Shown here: piece by piece, positions 14,831 through 54,240 of the stretch | Layout of the letters: every line of letters starts with the position of its first letter | Numbering within the stretch: position 1 is the stretch's first letter | Origin: Microbotryum violaceum | Lineage: Eukaryota | Assembly: GCA_001244265.2 (NCBI GenBank) | Contig: CDLV01000009.1 | Span: forward strand, 558,001-622,000 | Direction of reading: 5' to 3' | DNA: 64,000 nucleotides | Notes under the pieces: generated by a model | The model's database searches: none | Told to the model about the DNA's origin: nothing | Seen by the model: the letters and a program-made list of their open reading frames with translations, nothing else | Made by a program: the position numbers and the translations under genes

Positions 14831-14930
14831 GAGGTAGCGAAGGTTCAAACGTTCAAAGACGAACAAAGTGCCGTGACGGTCGACCGTTAACTAATCCTCA
14901 GTTAGCCTGGACGCGTCGAGGTAGTAACGC

Positions 14931-17637
14931 GCAATTTGGAGTCGCGCGACTGATCCTTCCCTCGCGGGCCCATCTTCCATCTTCATCCGCCTACGCAAAG
15001 TGCGCGCATCCGACCTCATCCCTTCCCTCTCGGTCGACAATGTCGTCCACTCCGACCCCGACTCGATGCTTGGAGCCGCTAGCAAGTACTTCGAAGGGGT
15101 CTACGAGGATCGCGCTATCGATGACGACGCCTTGGAGAAGATTATCGACGGTCTCGCCTCGACTCGCCTATCCCCTGCCGATTCGGACAAGCTCGAAGGA
15201 GCGTACCCCCTAGAGGAGATAACAAAGGCACAAGAGGCGTGTAAGTCGAACTCCTCGCCTGGACCCGACGGTCTCCCGGTCGAGTTTTACCGCGCAACGT
15301 GGACAGCCACAGGCCCCATCCTCCGCGACGTCATCAACTCGATCCCCACCGACGACGCCAGTTCTCGAACGTCGGCCCGCCACACTGCCCACATCCACCT
15401 CATCCACAAGCGCGGCGAGAGGGATCGGCTGGTGAACAAACGCCCCATATCACTCATCAACGCTGATGAACGCATCATCTCCCAAGCCCACAACCAGCGC
15501 CTTGCCCCTCTGCTCGAGACCCTGATCGGCTCGACCCAGCGCGGTTTCGTTCCGAACCGCTGGATTGGCACGAACATCGCCGAGGTGCAGTGTCTCATGG
15601 ATCCTGGGCTCCCGGGTTCAGAGCCGGTGTCCGGTCTGCTCGCAGTGATGGACTTCGAGAAGGCTTACGACCGTCTTTCCCACACCTACATCGATGCAGT
15701 CCTCAGCGCCGTTGGCCTTGGCCCGAAAGCCTGCCAATGGTACCGAGCGACCTATACAAACCAATCCGCCTCAATCTACCTCAACGGATGGCTCTCGGCC
15801 GCGTTCGATATCCTCTCGGGAGTTCGACAAGGCGACCCGCTGGCTCCGTCACTCTTCGTTCTCGCAATTGAGGGCTTCGCCGTACAGTTGCGGTCACAAG
15901 TCAAGGGCATCGCGAGCCCGGGACTCCCAACCATACGAGAACTTCTCTTTGCCGACGATGCCTGCTGTGCTCTCCACGACACCTCGGACCTCGACCACCT
16001 CAATCGGGCGATCGAGCTGTACGAGCGGGCAAGTGCCAGCAAGCTCAGCAACGCCAAATCTTTCCTCTACCCCCTCGGGTCATTCAGGGACCGTCCGATC
16101 CCTTCACACCTCGGGTCCTGGCGTCTCAGCGACTCGCAGTTTCGTTACCTGGGAGTGCAGGTTGGGGTGGACATCGCCGAGGATGCGGGCTGGGAGGAGG
16201 TCAAGTCCGCGACCGTCGCCCGGATACGATCCATCCCAATGTACGACCTTCCGTACGCAGCGAAATGTTCGATAATCAATATCTACTGCTACACGAAGAT
16301 TCTCTACCATAATCGTTTCATCCCAGCTTCCAAGAGCGTCGTCAAGGAGATCGAGGACGCGGTCATGATCGCTATCCACGGTCGAGCCTCGGACGGATCT
16401 CAGAAACCCCCGAAGGTCTCTCGGCTGCGCCTCTGCACCCCTCTCGACCACGGCGGCTTTGGCTTGATTGACTTACCTCGGCGCCTCGCGGTCGATCACG
16501 CCAAGTGGGTCTTTCATCTTCGGGACCCGGACGGCTGCTTCATTCGGCACCTCTTCGACATCCGCACTCGCCTTCAGGCGGCGAACGAACGCACCCCTTT
16601 ACCTTGCCCAAATCAGGCCCCAACCCACATCGTCGCTCGTGGGTCTGGATCTGGTGGGCCTACTTTTGCCACCCTCCTCCACAGTGGGAACGCGCAGTGA
16701 GGAAGACGAAGGCCCTGCTCCCTCCACGATGGATCCGCTATTTCGAAGCCTGGGATTTGGTGACAACGCTGAACCCCCCGAACTTTCCAAGAGCCCGAAT
16801 CTGGAGCGGTGGGCAACACACGTCCTCTACTTCCCAGCAGGCCACGGAATCCGACTCTCGGTGAACCCGACGCTTTTCCGAGGACCCGATGGCGAGGTGA
16901 TGACTCCGTCTTCGTTTGTGAACGCGTCCAAACGCCACCAAGCCTTCCTCTACCCTCCTATCCTCCCTCTCGGTCATCAGAGGGTTTTCTGTCTCCCCGA
17001 GCAACGCTGGAATGCCTGGTGGAAGGCGCTACGCAAGACTCGCAGGGTTCATTCGGACGCCGAAGACACGGCCCACCTCCTCTCCCTAGGTTCACTTCAT
17101 CCAGGTAGCCAAATCGCTTCTCCAAATAGCCGTTCTCTCCACAATCGATCTACCGCATGTGTCATGTGCCTGTCGGAGGCTCCGGAGACCCTGGCACACC
17201 TTGCGGTCGGTTGCCCGTTTGCCCGCCGCCTCTGGTCTGCGCTCACTCCTATCCCACACCCCGACTTTGTTCAGTTCGTGTGCCCGGTCGTTTCTCGCTC
17301 GGAACGCCGACCCGTCGAGCTGCGTCTACTCTTCTTCCACGCGATCTGGAAGCTCTCTCGTCGCCGTCGATTTTCGTCGGATCCTCTGGAGCCGATCGCC
17401 GAAACGGCATTTGAGGAGCTCCGCGCGTCCATCCAGGAGTCCAAGGGACGACTGGTTTCGCTGTAACCGCCTAAGGGGGTTTTAGTGGGTATGGTTGATT
17501 TTGTTCCAAGGTCAACGAGTCCCACACTACTGGCCTCGCCAGTGTGCTTAACTGCATTCCCTCCGTCTTTTCCGAGGATTTTTAGGCATTAATATAGATA
17601 TGCTGTTAATGAAATCTATTAGATAAAAAAAAAAAAA
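14931..17637 (+). mobile_element. 5'-truncated non-LTR retrotransposon (L1/Tx1-like LINE) with poly(A) tail; 5' boundary approximate
   Basis: RT domain and CCHC finger, short 3' UTR, A13 at 17625-17637; no ORF1 or endonuclease; no clear TSD. Confidence 0.9.
15000..17466 (+). pseudogene. LINE ORF2 remnant: reverse transcriptase plus zf-RVT-like finger, frameshifted
   Basis: SPGPDGLPVEFY, RPISLINADERI, DFEKAYDRLSH, GVRQGDPLAPSLF, LLFADDA, FRYLGV, LDHGGFGL; CVMCLSEAPETLAHLAVGC in a different frame. Confidence 0.9.
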
Positions 17638-45891: not shown

Positions 45892-47171
45892 ATGTCTAGT
45901 ACATCGGGCGACGATCACGTCCAAAGTCCAAATCCCACCCAGTCTCGCGATGTATGGCGTCCACCCAACGAGCGCAAGCGAGATCGCGATGCCCCACCCC
46001 CGATCCCATCCATCTACGAGCTTCTCCCCTCCTTGCCTCAACTCGCACCGGCGACCCAGACGCTCTCCGGCAAGCACCAACGCAGCACTGAAATGCGCAA
46101 GCTCGAGCACCTTGCCCGCGTGTTCGACATCGGACCCGCGGCGGACGCTTTGACGCGGCACCTCGAGGCAGAGGCCAAGCGATTGCACCAAATCCACTCG
46201 GCCGTGCGCAAGAGCGCCCCCAAGTATGCGCGCACGCGAAGCGGAACCTCGGGGGAGAACGAGACCGACCAGGATGGCTTGAGCAGGAACGACGAGACCG
46301 AAGCGCGCGATGGGGGCGACGAACAATCCGATACCGCAGCGCCGTCCGGCGGCGTCGGGTCTCCGGAGAAGGCGCGCAAGAGAGCCAAGCCCCAGTCGCG
46401 GACCTGGAGCAAAAGAAGGAGATTGGCAATTCCCAATGTGCCCAAGGTGGACGATGTGAATGTCCGAGTACCGCCAGGTGAGCCTTGGCACACCAGACTC
46501 GGAGCAGACGTGCCGCAGCTGATGATAGATTGAAACTCTTTGCCCGTCCGCTCAAGATTTTCCCTCAGGGGTAGGCCACAACAGCCCCACTGGCGTTGGA
46601 CTGATATATTGCGATCGCTGAGACAAGGTCACCGCTTCCTTTTGTCTACAGTCTCTTCTCTCGAGCCTCCATTCTCACGTCTCTCGCCGGCTTGCCGCAT
46701 CGTACAACATCGTCCTGCCTCTCACCATCAACGAGCCCTTTCAGTCTCCGTCGGTGCTACAACACTTTGAGGAGCTCCACGCCGACGAGTTTGCGTCCGA
46801 GGAACGCTGCTTTGAGATGGCCAGCGAAAGACAGTGGAAAAAGTTCAAAAAGGCGTTGCGCGCCAATCCATTGTCGACGTCGCAGAAAGTGGTCGGATGG
46901 AAGAAGGAGTGGAGGAATGCGGATCGAGCTTTCGAAGATTCGGCGCTCGTCGCCATGGGTCAGTTCACGACGACACGGTGCACTTCCGTGGCCTTCATTG
47001 ACCCGAGTCGCATCTCTGATGACTTTATTTTGGGATACCATAGGGATCTTGTTGAAATTACACGCTCGCGACCTGTGTCAAAACCCGGAACGAATCATGG
47101 CGCTCTCGGCAACATCGGACGCGGAGACCGACGACGACCCACCCAGTGTACCCTGCTCTGTCGCGGCCTAG
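45892..47171 (+). CDS. Conserved fungal protein, Rrn10 (Pol I UAF subunit)-like C-terminal motifs
   Basis: Spliced model with LLSSLHSHVSR and AFEDSALVAMGILLKLH, resembling the Rrn10-type LHyyAS...FDETsLiaLGlL motifs; head-to-head with RRP43. Confidence 0.5.
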
Positions 47172-47938
47172 AACCTCGGCTTACCGCTACACCCGTTGTC
47201 GCAACTACCCGAGCAACGTATGTCACAACCCAAGAATCGCAAAATATTCGCCGACGAGCATGGACAAGAAGAGCGAGCCCAATGGGGACGAAAAATCGGG
47301 CCAGGGTGCTATGTGTCAAGCTGAAGCAGGGACTAAACCCTCGCTACGAGGCTCCGCCGAGCCGGCCCGAGCGGAGGGCGTGAGATGCGGTTCAAATCCG
47401 GCTACGTCGAGAGGGAGCTGTGTATCCGCTCTAAACGTTAGCTCAATCAGACCAATGACGTGGTGACTCAAGTCTAATAAGGTTTGTTGAATTTGCTGGA
47501 GCTTGACCGGGTCTGCGAGTCCATTCACGACCCAATGGGTGTTCAACGCGAGGGGAACAAGCAGTATGGCACTTCTTGTTGGGACTGGTATGTGACGGGA
47601 AATACTCGACATTGCAAGAAGAAAGCATTTGCTGTGTACTGAGAAAATGAAGAGGACGGTGTCTTCGGTACTTGGAGTCTTCGTTCATGAATCCTGCAAT
47701 AATGAGTAGTAATGCGCCGTCAGATGCGTCCCGGAGAACTTGAAGCTCGAGCCAAATACTCACAATATGCATCCTCTGCTCCTCGTCCCGGGGTGGGTTC
47801 TGTACGCCTGGTGTCGGGATCTCCTCTCCATCGCCGGCTCGTTCGCGGGGTTCGTGACGTCCACGCTTGCTCGGCGAGCCATCATGTTCGTTCCGCTCTC
47901 TCGCAAACGTGTTGTTCGTAGTGTTAGCGTCAGGGTCG

Positions 47939-48287
47939 TTGGAACGTTGTAGGCGAGTTACTGTTGTTGGAAGATGCGATTAGCGTTTTAGGTTCGATTG
48001 GTGAAGAGCGTGCTGATACGAAAGCTGCGCGTCCTTTGCTACCTGTCTCACTCCTTCAGGCTCCTGCTCAAGGTCGTGGTATTCGGGGCGTGCGCTTTGT
48101 CCCCACCCCAAGCCGGACAGTTCGGAACACCACAATATCATAAGCAGGGAGCTTGTAGGGACGAGACAGGCAGCCAAGGACGCGCAGATGTTGAATTTGC
48201 CCAACTGCCATGTTCACCAATCGAACCTGCAGATCCAAAACGCGAATCCCATCGTACAACAACAACAACCCGCCCACAATGCTCCAA
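47939..48287. repeat. Diverged inverted repeat (arms ~47939-48093 and ~48125-48287)
   Basis: Shared blocks such as TTCACCAATCGAACCT and GAGACAGGyAGCmAAGGACGCGCAG in opposite orientations. Confidence 0.75.
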
Positions 48288-48523
48288 AGGTTGGTAAGGA
48301 ATTTTTTTCCTTTAACTTCTCACACGTTCCCGACTCTTTACATTTTTATTTGTCTTTTTTTGTCCTGCTTTTTGATTAATCAAAAAAGACAAAGAAAAAG
48401 AGTCGGGCTAAGATAAAAAAATCTAAAGTGATGGGAACAAGAGTCGGGGGTTTCATTTTCAATCAAAGCAGACCACATGACCCTGCTTCCCGAAGCAGAC
48501 TAAGACGATCTGTTTTGCCGCCC

Positions 48524-49929
48524 GCGAGGCTGCTCGCGCACCTCCTCCTCCGCACAACCTGACTCCCGCTCTAATCGCACAGACGCCGCCGCCCACAACC
48601 TGGAACAATCGCAGATCCAAAGCCCAGCGGCAACGACGCCTTCGCGAGCAGCAGGCGAAATCGATCAACACGACGTCGCGCCAACTGAATCGTCAAGCCA
48701 ACTGCACAGGCAGCAGGCAATCCCAATGTCGCACGGCAAGTGCGACGGGCCCGCAGTCCTTCACTTCCGGGCTTGAGATTCGTTCGTCCACGCTTTGAAG
48801 CAGTTACAGACCTCTCTCGCGTCGCCGGTTCAAGTACAGACGCAACTGCGACTTCAGCCACTATTGTCGTCGATCGACGGACGCCAACGCCGCAAAAGAG
48901 AGCGATCGAGCCAGACCGTTCCAACTGCGCTGCTGCAGTTGCCAGAAAGGCCTGTTCCCTGGCACGATCTCGAATCAATGACGTTGCAATGTCCGATCTG
49001 TTCGGCTCTACACGGGGAGTTCGAAAATCACCGACCCCAGGCAGCGCCACAAAAGACTGGGTCGTTTGCTGGGGCTGATGCTAGCTTGCCGATACGGTGA
49101 AATACATTCCGCTCAAGTAGAAAGATGGTGGCCCGGAGCCGCTGATGATGCCATGGCCTTTGCTCGTGCCGTAGCAAGGTTTTCGTTGAATACAAGAATG
49201 CGGTCCCGGAAGGTCTTCTGAACTGTTCCACGGATAGTCAGCAAGGCCGTTAGTCCGCTGTACTCATTCTAGCAAGTTGAACGAATCGACGTGTACTAAC
49301 CTGGGCCATCGTCAGTCAGAAGCGCGAGCAGCTCGGGCGGGGGCTTTTCGATCCCGGGCACTCGGAACTTGCCGTCCGCGCAACAGATTTTGAACGGTGT
49401 GGCGCTGCCTGGGGTCGGTGATTTTCGACCTCCCAGTGTAGAGCCGAACAGATCGGACATTGCAACGTCATTGATTCGAGATCGTGCCGGGGAACAGGAC
49501 TTTCTGGCAACGGCAGCAGCGCAGTTGGAACGGTCTGGCTCGATCGCTCTCTTTCGCGTTGGCGTCGTTGACGCTGCGCCGCGGATCGTCGATCGACGAC
49601 AATAGTGGCTGAAGTCGCAGTTGCGTCTGTACTTGAACCGGCGACGCGAGAGAGGTCTGTAACTGCTTCAAAGCGTGGACGAACGAATCTCAAGCCCGGA
49701 AGTGAAGGACTGCGGGCCCGTCGCACTTGCCGTGCGACATTGGGATTGCCTGCTGCCTGTGCAGTTGGCTTGACGATTCAGTTGGCGCGACGTCGTGTTG
49801 ATCGATTTCGCCTGCTGCTCGCGAAGGCGTCGTTGCCGCTGGATCTGCGATTGTTCGAGGTTGTTGGTGGCGGCATCTGTGCGATTAGAGCGCGAGTCGG
49901 GTTGTGCGGAGGAGCGCGAGCAGCCTCGC
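48524..49929. repeat. Long inverted repeat: arms ~48524-49051 and ~49398-49929, ~350-bp spacer
   Basis: Near-identical arms; ORFs 48740(+) and 49726(-) share their first 47 residues. Confidence 0.95.
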
Positions 49930-50052
49930 TGGCGGAGACTGGCGGAGGCCGGCGGGTGGCAGCTGGCTGCGCGCTCAGCTCAAGTCACGCTGCCGACGTC
50001 TCTGCTGCCCCTCTAGGAATCAGAGTCTTCGAGCAGACGCGAGGTAGTCCAT
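49051..50052 (-). mobile_element. Helitron Rep/helicase N-terminal fragment (degenerate, with one intron)
   Basis: RHDLESMTLQCPICSALHWEVE; FKICCADGKFRVPGIEKPPPELLALLT|intron|QKTFRDRILVFNENLA; GSGPPSFYLSG; NVFHRIGKL, in the order typical of the Helitron N-terminal region. Confidence 0.8.
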
Positions 50053-52089
50053 TTCAAGAAAGCTGGTTGATGTAGTAGGGTGTGTGTCCCGCAAAATGAG
50101 TTATCGACGACGATGCGTGAGTGCAATGTGAGAAGCAACAGAGGAGCGAAGAGCTGCAGAACCGGCGACAAAGCGACATGCTATCAGCGACGGATTACGT
50201 GCTCCTTGAGCTCAGCTCGAGCGAGCTTGCTCATTCAGCGACTCGTCGTCCCAAAATGGGCAACATTGAAAGCAGATTTATCGTGTCTCATAAGATAATG
50301 ATGTCAAGATATACCCATGTTCTGCCTCCAGAAATACGTACAGCCTTCTACAGCAGGCGGATCAACTGTTCTAGTTGAAACGGACTTGAACAGGACGTTT
50401 CGGCTGGTGCCGGGCCAAACTTGCTACGGCCAAGGAGGCTGCCGATCCGATCGGCTTTTCTTTGCCGCTGCACGGCGAGATTAGGATCAGCCCCTATGAA
50501 TATACCTGAGGTCACTGTAGACACGTGACATGCGTAGGGGCTCGCCAGTGCACCGAAGACTTGAGCGCGCGGCGGTTGAAGCTTTGAAGGGCTCGAAGGG
50601 CGCCGCCCGAACAAGCTTCCGTGGCGATCCCTTCCGTTTTGGAACGTGAGCTCGGTACCGCGATTATTCATCAACTCGGATGGGCTGGTGCAAAGTTCAA
50701 GCGACCAGGTGCGAGAATTACTGGTATACCAGTACTTCTCGGCGCAATGCCCGTCCGAAGTTTTACATCTGACTCTGCCTATGCACAATTATTCCAACAC
50801 CAGCTGTGCCGAATTTGTTGGAGCACGGCCCTCGAGCTATTATCTACCACTGCCTGACTGCCCCGCTTCCGACCGACCAGGTTGCAGTGGGAGCTTCGAT
50901 ATTGAGGTCATATGCATGAATTCCCCACAGTCGATTAGTCAAAGTATCATGCATTGAATTCCAGACGACCTGATGAAAAAGGATGGGAAAGAAAGGAGTG
51001 GGAGCGGGACGTTGTTTTGCTGTGCAAGCCCACCCTAGGGGCAAGACATGGGTCTTCGCGGTGGCTTCTGGCCGATAAAAAACTTGCCGGATCGAGAAAT
51101 GGCATGGTTCAGTAGGCCTTCGAGGGGTAAGAGTGGTACCTACATGGTCCTAGGCGGTGATCGTTGGCCCTCGAAAGAGAAAGTAGAGCAAATCTTTCCG
51201 GCAAAGATTACCATGTAGGGGCTCACTCGCGCAGGCGAAGCGAGCGCGCTCATGGAGGCAAAGGGCCCTTCGACTCGTGCAAGGGCGATCATCAGTTTGG
51301 GGATTTTCATATTTATGTAGCTACTCGAATGATTGCCCCACTACTGAACACCTCCATCGAAATGTGCTCTTCATTCTGCCATGTGCGTTTTACGAATCAT
51401 GTAGTTCAAGATCTGCCGACCGCTTCTTCGTCGGCTTGGCGCGTGACATGACGACAGACAGATCGCGTACCTTGAGACGGAACCCGCGGCCGCTCGGCGT
51501 TCGACCGGTCGCCCCATCCCTAACTTGACTGCTTCGTAGATTACTCTGTGACTACTACTAATTACTACTCAGTAGGTGGCCATCGCCGCTGACAGTTTAA
51601 TTCTTGACTTTTAATTTATTCGAGGCGTGGTCGGTGATCACATGGCGTACGACGGCGGGGTAGTACTCGGAGATCTCTGGACTGACTGAATGAGATACTC
51701 ACCATGGGTATTCAGAGGTGGGTCTTGAGGGGCTCGGGGCTCGTAAGAATTCTCATCGAGCAGACCAGAGTCCGGATGTCGACTAGGGGGCAGGAAGATC
51801 AGAATCCCGATTTGTCTGGCGATCTCGTGGTGGCCGCGTCGCCTCAGCCTGCCAGGCTTTGCCGCGTTGAGCCTGAGGATCGCTTCCGTCCGCGCGTGCT
51901 CTCTCGCGTGCGTGCTTGGCCTTCCTGAACGGCCGCTCCCTTCCCGGTCCCCTTCTCCGTCCGTCCTCATCTTCTAGCACCGCGCCGCGAGCTTCCCTTG
52001 CTCTCCAGGTCTCTTGTCATCTCTCGACTACCTACCTATCTACCTACTCGAACCACTCGCCCAACTGCTTGCACTCACACCTACCCTCG

Positions 52090-52498
52090 ATGCAAGTCGC
52101 GACGACGACAACAGAGATCGAGCGATCGCCCTTGCCAGCCAAGAGCGATGCACCGTCGTCGCCCAAAGCCATTGACGTTGCGGCCAGATCCACCGCCGAA
52201 CAGCGCCGCTTCTTCGTCCACCTCAACGACATCTGGGATGATGGCTACGAGGCCGGCACTCAGAGCCAGTCGACGTCTTCTACCTTCTCCTCGACGGCCA
52301 AGTTCGATGGCAAAGGTCGCGCGCTCTCTCGTGATCGTGAGTCGTCGGGTCTCGTCCGTGCCTGCCCATCTCTCGCGATCTGCGGCGTAGTTACTGACCG
52401 ATTGCTTTCTATCCTCGCCAACGCTTTGATTGACAGATGGATCGCGGAACACCAAAGATGCGGATGCGAACAAGGCCGGGTGCTGCACCATCTCATGA
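52090..52498 (+). CDS. Small (102 aa) predicted prenylated protein ending CCTIS; exons 52090-52336 and 52437-52498
   Basis: GTGAGT donor, ACTGAC branch point, GACAG acceptor; in-phase splice gives ...RALSRDHGSRNTKDADANKAGCCTIS*. Confidence 0.65.
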
Positions 52499-54240
52499 TT
52501 GCGCTTCGGAGCGCATGCCATCGCTGGCTCCGCCATCGCTCCTTAGCGCACTCACCGACCGCTGAGGGCAAACTGCTGTGTCGATCGACCGTGCGCCACT
52601 GCAACACGCGATGCCTCCACGGCAGCCGCCCACTATCACAAGAACCTGACCAACTCGCTCGACATCCTGTACGGGTACAAGTCAAGGAAACACGTGCTAG
52701 CGTGGACAGCCTCGCAGGCGCATACCGCCCGTCGCACACCGCCTTCTCCCTCTCCGCCGCCGGGTCTCACCGCTCTTTTACCGGACTAAATCCGTCGCGT
52801 CAAACCTAGACTTGACCGCTCGCAACTTCCACCTCGCATAAATTCGTAGTACCCGCATTTCATGCTCACCCACCTTAGGGTCATGTTGTTGTACCATGTC
52901 AATAATCCCTCGGAATGTATCGATCTCTGCTTCTCCCGCTCTATTCGCTTGTCCCCTCTCCTAGCTGGCGATGACTTTGCAGGGTGCTGACGTGCTGACT
53001 CGCTGAGGGTGGAAGGCGGCTTGCCGAGCTAGCCAGTCAAAGCAGTCATGGGCGATCAAGTCGGCAGCGCCTGTCACCTGATCATCAGGACGACGTCTCA
53101 GCTCGAAACGCTACAAAAGGCTCAGCACTTAGCTACGAGCCACAAATCTGCACGTGCTGACCACCCTGACACCCCGTCTACCCCGAGGTGCCGTCCCCGT
53201 GCCCTACGGTCAACGCTCGTCCGCGGAGCGGAGCGGTGTGAGCCAGCGCGCGAGCCGCGAGCAATCCACTGTAGGAAGGATCGCCCTGGGCACTTGTCTC
53301 ACACGCGTCTCATTCATTGTCGATGGGCGATGGGCGCGCGCGCTGTCGATCGCCGAGCGTTCGGGCCGCGGGTCGTTACGCCTCGCTCCGAGTCCCGGGC
53401 CCTCGCGGGTGTTCATGTCTTTCCGAGGTAGAGACCTACCTATCGCAGATACTGTTCGCAGATCGTAGGCCGCTTTGACCACCTCCGATGAGCCATGGCT
53501 CCCACAGGTTCGAAGAGGCAACCTTGTCAAAACAATCCGCGGGCCGGCTTCGCTCACCGATCGAGCGAACCCATTCAGTCTCTGTGCCCTCTACCCCTTG
53601 CATCCGGTCAAGCGCGACAGATCCGTAGCTCGGTCCGGGTACCTACCTACGTGACACCCCTCGGAAAGGAATCCTTGCCTCGGCGCTCACTCCAGCAGCG
53701 TCACCTCGGGTCCTCGAGCGTTGTCGGCTTTGCGCAATTTCTTCCCGGATCCAGGCCGAGAATAATATTCGACTTGCTACCTGGTCTTCGATTCGCTGAT
53801 TACGCATCTCACGGTGTTGTCCTTTTGCGCATTACAACCAGTTGAGAGACGATGCGTGGGTCCGTTCCGCTTCGTTTGACGGTAGCCCTTGCAGGTGTAC
53901 CGCTTGGCATGGAGGGCTCAGCGCTGAGCTCCTCCGGGCCGAAACTTCTTGCGAGCTCGAACGCATCGAATACGTTTGTACCTGCACTATTACAGTGTTC
54001 GGTGGTGCGTCACTAGATACCCCTCTTTACACCTAGATAAAGACCAAAACATGCTCTCTTCGCCCCCCTTCGCACCCTTCGCCGAGCACACTTCTGGGTT
54101 CCGACGTCCATCGGACATCATCTTGCCAGATTCAGCCGGCAGATCTTGCCTCGGCGCCCGGGTGCGAACCTGTCCACTGTCACACAGCCTCGGACTCAAC
54201 CTCCTTGTATAACCGCTTACCCAAACCTTCCCTCAGCGCG

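Follow-up and report, generated by a model that had tools for sequence, protein, structure and literature searches.

Drosophila hpRNA loci and intron-spliced hairpin transgenes consist of a long inverted repeat with a loop, which is transcribed and processed as a Dicer substrate. In maize, a natural partial inverted duplication of the 5′ part of a DNA transposon transposase gene is found in Mu killer (Muk), where ~1.3 kb of mudrA is inverted and able to fold back, and Muk is described as silencing MuDR by genetic evidence and as having known transcripts (PMC3440606). Related structures are described from DNA repair in Saccharomyces cerevisiae. Fold-back inversions in this yeast give an inverted duplication with a unique spacer, which a second junction stabilises; they are reported to rely on short inverted repeats already present at the turning point, and they usually lead to large chromosome rearrangements (PMC7467729, PMC10622511). 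Short templated inverted insertions, mostly of ~5-34 bp, are reported to arise when, during the repair of a break, neighbouring sequence is copied into it by fold-back (PMC11724301).

Here we analyse a locus in the genome of the anther-smut fungus Microbotryum violaceum at which a Helitron fragment is folded back on itself. The analysis covered a window of 64,000 nucleotides, the whole stretch of DNA under study, and all positions are those of this window. A fold-back transposon hairpin is a known kind of structure, and the Microbotryum Helitron locus is a new case of it with an anatomy like that of Muk: in each, a section from the 5′ end of the transposase gene of a DNA transposon has been duplicated naturally in inverted orientation, and each could give a long fold-back RNA. 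They differ in host and element, Muk being derived from a plant Mutator element and the Microbotryum locus from a basidiomycete Helitron, as well as in size, with 0.53 kb of the 5′ region of the RepHel gene inverted here against the ~1.3 kb of mudrA described for Muk. In addition, no terminal repeat or promoter was duplicated in Microbotryum, as far as can be told. The locus shares with the Drosophila hpRNA loci and hairpin transgenes the long inverted repeat and shares with the transgenes an intron in the loop. In contrast to these systems and to Muk, with its reported genetics and transcripts, it is known from DNA alone. Compared with the reported yeast events, the inverted tract is long (534 nt, with a 346-nt spacer), there is no visible microhomology, and the chromosome is otherwise collinear.

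A Helitron fragment joined to an inverted copy of its own 5′ region

When the whole 64-kb window was compared with itself, the only repeat of at least 80 nt was a pair of inverted copies, arm A at 48518..49051 and arm B at 49398..49935. In blastn, 48518-49051 matched 49935-49398 with 91.8% identity over 551 columns (E 0.0), with 15 mismatches and 5 gap openings. A repeat search resolved the pair into four collinear pieces, namely 48518-48545 with 49908-49935 (28 nt, 93%), 48545-48619 with 49840-49914 (75 nt, 92%), a perfect core at 48624-48879 with 49587-49842 (256 nt, 100%) and 48891-49051 with 49398-49558 (161 nt, 96%). Arm B lies on the minus strand and is the original 5′ coding part of a Helitron copy, hereafter copy B, with a zinc-finger-like motif, CPICSALHW, inside it. 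Upstream of the repeat, copy B extends through 49936..50052 on the same strand to an ATG at 50052 that opens the reading MDYLA, and this segment has single-copy contig depth (bins 49869-50170). Downstream it continues through the loop, 346 nt at 49052..49397 (minus strand), as far as ..ANDPVF at 49052. At this point, the fold-back or inner junction (49051..49052), arm A ends and the reverse complement of ..GACCCAGTCTTT (..DPVF) follows directly. Arm A is an inverted copy of the part of copy B at 49398-49935, with the Helitron sense on the plus strand; residues 36-83 of the homologous protein P0003 match it at 48882-49025 with 81% identity in tblastn, and at its outer junction (48517..48518) it meets unrelated DNA of the left flank. 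These data confirm the inverted repeat described in an earlier sequence-only reading of this DNA, which had seen a near-identical stem with a loop of ~350 nt and a fusion at ..DPVF to an inverted copy of the element's own upstream ~530 bp; the inverted tract measures 534 nt.

Exon 1 ends in the loop (..FKICCADGKFRVPGIEKPPPELLALLTDDGP), which also contains an intron and exon 2 (VQKTFRDRIL..), the latter with frameshifts. The predicted intron comprises 78 nt at 49223..49300 on the minus strand, has a GTTAGT donor, an ACTAAC branch-like site and a CAG acceptor, and lies between ..DDGP (49302) and QKTFRDRIL (49220). Its removal keeps the frame and gives ..DDGP-V-QKTF.., to be compared with ..GDGPVEKIF.. 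in P0003. The idea that the loop contains the element's own intron, which had been put forward from the letters, is right in view of this GT..AG interval and of the frame that its removal preserves.

Identification of the fragment as the degenerate N-terminal part of a Helitron on the minus strand, likewise proposed earlier, was borne out by homologous proteins. With the minus-strand ORF 49316-49777 as query, six proteins among 3190 candidates gave E <= 0.01 (E 3.6e-48 to 1.5e-14), and all six belong to Microbotryum (M. silenes-dioicae or M. saponariae). They are of the RepHel family: the Helitron_like_N domain (PF14214) is found in P0001, P0003 and P0004, the PIF1 helicase domain (PF05970) in P0003, P0004 and P0006, and both together in P0003 (1470 aa) and P0004 (1740 aa). 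When the whole window was searched by tblastn, residues 1-185 of P0003 mapped to 49672-49052 and ended exactly at ..DPVF. Alignment to full-length Helitron proteins, which had been suggested as a way to map the junction, places it at 49052 in this manner.

The remainder of the element was looked for by several routes. Beyond residue 185 of RepHel, tblastn with the homologous proteins gave no match in the 64-kb window, and the same held for the PIF1-type helicase (PF05970). Among the eight ORFs of the arms and loop, Pfam did not find PF14214 or anything else relevant, the lone match being SWI-SNF_Ssr4_C with E 0.11, below the cut-off; 13 further neighbouring ORFs also contained nothing relevant, and a search of 47000-51500 against Rfam (E <= 0.1) returned 0 matches. 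With its Rep/HUH and helicase parts missing, the locus is a fragment and not an element. Helitrons have a 5′-TC end, a 3′-CTRR end and a 3′ hairpin, and they insert at an A|T site; the 3′ end is missing from the window. The reading frame of copy B also shifts three times or more over its 185 residues: the CPICSALHW motif is in another frame than the FKICCADGKFRVPGIEKPPPELLALLTDDGP stretch, later parts are shifted too, and the frame that begins with the ATG at 50052 meets a stop after 10 codons. Given these frameshifts and the early stop, copy B is dead.

Elsewhere in the window, ORFs at 14928-17466 on the plus strand contain RVT_1 (E 1.4e-20) and zf-RVT (E 1.6e-4), which mark a LINE-like retroelement or relic as judged from these domains. 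PTR2, VID27 and CHS5 domains in other ORFs of the window point to fungal DNA.

Junctions and neighbouring repeats in other assemblies

The stretch, or part of it, is contained in 20 listed runs from seven studies, none of which is recorded as RNA. We aligned the contigs of four of these runs (X1, X13, X15 and X20), which come from four studies and carry four organism labels; X1 is perhaps the window's own source, and X15 and X20 are from other studies. In the flanks of the four sampled runs, divergence from the window is far below 1%. At the outer end of arm A, the junction 48517|48518 is bridged by X1 record 2 (48420-48576, 0 differences) and by X15 record 17 (48449-48590); at that of arm B, the junction 49935|49936 is bridged by X1 record 8, X13 record 16 and X15 record 23. 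The fold-back junction itself, 49051|49052, is bridged by X20 record 25 (48972-49135, with 80 and 84 letters on the two sides). X1 record 3 and X15 record 20 also reach it (49022-49148, 30 and 97 letters, no differences); these contigs have 30 letters on the arm side, where the rule demanded 31, and since their first 31-letter word is possible only with the junction present, they support it all the same. Depth at the fold-back junction is that of single-copy DNA (225 against 228 in X1; 26.8 against 26-28 in X15). An inversion of the loop is invisible to 31-letter words, the inner 31 nt of the arms being identical. X20 might be an RNA run, but its patchy cover of ~3x is alike over flanks and locus and looks like low-coverage DNA, so that no conclusion on transcription was drawn from it.

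Summed contig depth over the arms and loop was 906-1589 in X1 against 228 in the flank, that is 4-7 times as high, and the ratios were similar in X13 and X15. This raised depth indicates that the fragment stems from a family with several close copies. For comparison, 373 Helitron copies are reported for M. lychnidis-dioicae (Table 2 of PMC4469406).

A few smaller deviations were seen in the aligned contigs. X15 lacks 3 nt at 48541 in arm A and 2 nt at 49197 in the loop, and one of its contigs of single-copy depth skips 49293-49342, across the intron donor. In X1, the positions 49286 and 49987 are connected through 27 foreign letters by a contig of single-copy depth whose shorter side spans 25 letters; this contig may come from a different copy of the family or be matched spuriously.

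Two more inverted repeats lie upstream of the arms, as had been noted before. One is an imperfect palindrome of 181 nt at 48016..48196 (49-nt arms, 78% complementary, 83-nt spacer) with single-copy depth, which folds at z = -6.9, with 0 of 200 shuffled sequences folding equally well. The other is a small A/T-rich palindromic element at 48290..48448 with very high copy number, whose core at 48329-48407, with the ends CCCGACTCTTT / AAAGAGTCGGG, folds at z = -4.6 (0 of 200 shuffles as good). In each of the four runs, words of the A/T-rich element reach ~30-270 times the depth of single-copy DNA, and the element is polymorphic, its 159 nt being replaced by 1078 other letters in a 24.8-kb contig of X15. 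It may represent a MITE-like family; the window holds no second copy, and there was no Rfam match within 47000-51500. In the self-comparison of the window, the upstream repeats were unrelated in sequence to the Helitron arms. The further suggestion that so many inverted repeats might make the locus fragile found no support in the four runs, which show only small indels at the locus. According to published work, the instability of inverted repeats is lowered by distance and divergence between them (PMC10164571).

Arm divergence and origin of the fold-back

With one complex indel region excluded, 12 substitutions separate the arms in 506 aligned columns (2.4%). The arms are further distinguished by a 6-nt indel, a 7-nt indel and a 20-nt deletion accompanied by small adjacent changes. 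Judged against arm B and the homologous proteins, the 7-nt insertion and the 20-nt deletion both occurred on arm A; the homologous proteins do not resolve the polarity of the 6-nt indel. Each arm also has private amino-acid changes. The 12 clean substitutions comprise eight transversions and four transitions, all four of the latter at CpG, a spectrum that is unusual, in small numbers. A RIP-like process of Microbotryum is reported to target TCG, with C-to-T change (CGA on the other strand; PMC10502011). Between the arms, none of the 12 clean substitutions lies at TCG or CGA, of which each arm has 36-43 sites, and the four transitions are at other CpG sites.

The differences leave a clean run of 262 columns, a length that was reached in 99 of 200000 trials in which 16 events were placed at random. 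This part may simply have stayed identical, but it was more probably made identical again by gene conversion between the arms. Opposite-arm states at 49014, 49020, 49489 and 49499 had raised the possibility that the arms are more alike in the X20 lineage; this was rejected, as collapsed arms give the same picture. The 2.4% divergence of the arms is about that which can be estimated from the sister species, and the dating is therefore loose, with the rearrangement scar being fairly old.

A gene with three exons lies to the left of the hairpin on the plus strand (45892..47168) and is transcribed towards it; no Pfam domain was found in the ORF 46622-47383, which holds its last two exons. Its best homologue is P0007, BQ5605_C004g02719 of M. 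silenes-dioicae, with 98% identity, and MVLG_03853 of M. lychnidis-dioicae is in the same 90% cluster as P0007; these two are its orthologues. The gene differs at ~3% of residues from M. lychnidis-dioicae p1A1, and likewise from M. silenes-dioicae, and is conserved in M. silenes-dioicae, M. saponariae, M. lychnidis-dioicae and M. intermedium. The closest match to copy B is P0002, BQ5605_C004g02722, with 94%, and P0002 and P0007 are located on one contig of 1,412,762 nt, three locus tags apart. P0002 starts with MDYLA, like the window at 50052-50038, which is single-copy by depth, and it runs 62 residues past ..DPVF into ordinary Helitron sequence that is missing from the window. This shared start and place, together with the read-through, make an unfolded allele in M. 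silenes-dioicae the simplest reading, and P0002 is probably the orthologous copy before folding, with the left flank as the anchor of this assignment. On the right flank, the ORF 51877-52809 had homologues in 0 of 3510 candidates, and for the CHS5 ORF there was no near-identical representative, the best having 72%. As judged from these comparisons, the fold-back probably arose after the split from M. silenes-dioicae and before the four sampled lineages diverged.

We envisage that a Helitron copy on the minus strand, already incomplete by then, suffered a break or an interruption of replication just after ..DPVF (residue 185 of 1470 in RepHel). DNA synthesis would then have turned back 346 nt upstream and copied ~534 nt of the copy's own 5′ coding region in reverse, after which the new end would have been joined to unrelated DNA at 48517, with loss of the Helitron sequence past ..DPVF. 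Both arms would afterwards have decayed as non-coding DNA. Two features of the arms bear on this scheme: arm A begins 117 nt inside the frame of copy B and also ends inside copy B, and both arms have lost 1 nt (..EVEN/EFEN HRPQ for E-K/R-SPTPG), a loss missing from all six homologous proteins. Together with the probable unfolded sister allele, the internal ends of arm A and the shared loss argue for a local inverted duplication instead of a second insertion; the same points date the event to a time after the element's insertion and speak against a template switch in rolling-circle replication. No microhomology between 49051|49052 and 49397|49398 is visible in the present sequence, from which the parental DNA past ..DPVF has been lost; fold-back priming in yeast is described as using short inverted repeats (PMC7467729, PMC10622511). 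We infer general DNA repair or replication as the origin, a route that need not be Helitron-specific.

Several other histories have to be weighed against this one. An artefact of assembly, through a mis-join of chimeric or palindromic type, deserves mention because palindromic mis-joins are a known event in assemblies. The sequence-only reading had already taken the differences between the arms as an argument against it, and rightly so: 12 substitutions and three indel regions separate the arms, and all junctions recur at single-copy depth in contigs of other studies. We regard an artefact as very unlikely, to the point of being hardly credible. Alternatively, two Helitron copies of one subfamily might have been inserted tail to tail, with a later deletion taking both tails, a history for which the abundance of Helitrons in Microbotryum (as reported in PMC4469406 for M. 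lychnidis-dioicae) and the several close copies seen by contig depth offer the material. Arm A, however, is cut inside the element at both ends, the frameshift common to the arms is missing from six of six homologues, the arms share a 256-nt perfect stretch, and their outer 55 nt are covered by contigs of single-copy depth such as X1 record 2, all of which makes a double insertion highly improbable. The same must be said, with barely less emphasis, of the origin proposed in the sequence-only reading, in which the fold-back was born at insertion as a by-product of rolling-circle transposition, when Rep/helicase or a polymerase switched strands. Helitrons are reported to move via single-stranded DNA intermediates (PMC10502011), and it is the 5′ region of the element that is folded; against this, arm A does not derive from an element terminus, copy B continuing for at least 117 nt further, to the ATG, and the probable allele of the sister species has the copy unfolded in this very position, which would make the fold-back later than the insertion. 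Nothing ties the origin to template switching in rolling-circle transposition, the inverted arm starting as well as ending inside the element, and the proposal is probably wrong in detail. We consider it likely that the locus is a genuine fold-back scar, an inverted duplication formed at a single locus in a dead Helitron fragment, without demonstrated function.

Hairpin RNA and silencing potential

A minus-strand RNA of 48500-49960 (1461 nt) was predicted to fold with -1211.6 kcal/mol, a value taken without a shuffle control, and with its arms paired end to end. If transcribed, an RNA through both arms would form a stem of ~0.53 kb with an intron-containing loop, and the predicted hairpin would be a substrate for Dicer. 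Such transcription might start on the upstream side of the element or might be read-through from the plus-strand neighbour that ends at 47168. For M. lychnidis-dioicae, expressed genes for one Dicer, two Argonautes and an RdRP are reported (PMC4469406). In the literature search, no small-RNA study of Microbotryum was among the matches listed. We think it rather doubtful that the locus gives detectable siRNAs, and it is decidedly unlikely that the locus silences the Helitron family to a measurable degree.

One functional reading is that of a working 'killer' locus, in which the fold-back is transcribed and spliced, its stem is diced, the siRNAs silence an active subfamily in trans, and selection keeps the locus. 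In support of it one can name the existence of close targets, as indicated by the 4-7-fold depth of arms and loop over single-copy flank in X1, the RNAi genes that are described as present and expressed in M. lychnidis-dioicae (PMC4469406), the retention of the locus in all four runs aligned, and the 262-column perfect core that remains. On the other side, both arms carry indels and substitutions, as expected of neutral DNA, gene conversion accounts just as well for the perfect core, and persistence over less than 1% divergence needs no selection. A killer locus is unlikely on this balance, and an inert scar is the most likely state of the locus.

Even if it is silent, the locus remains a clean small fold-back duplication with both junctions mapped. 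A more far-reaching idea, to which we give little credence, is that Microbotryum repeatedly turns the front ends of transposons into transcribed fold-backs that act as heritable RNAi 'vaccines', one per family. Were it true, these would be a recurrent fungal counterpart of Mu killer, the locus described here would be the anti-Helitron one, and, with a fold-back born after the split from M. silenes-dioicae, that species would serve as a natural control without it. How genomes first recognise transposon families is poorly understood beyond a few plant and animal cases. A sequence-resolved Helitron fold-back in an RNAi-competent fungus, with a probable unfolded sister allele, would allow a comparative test of whether such scars seed silencing.
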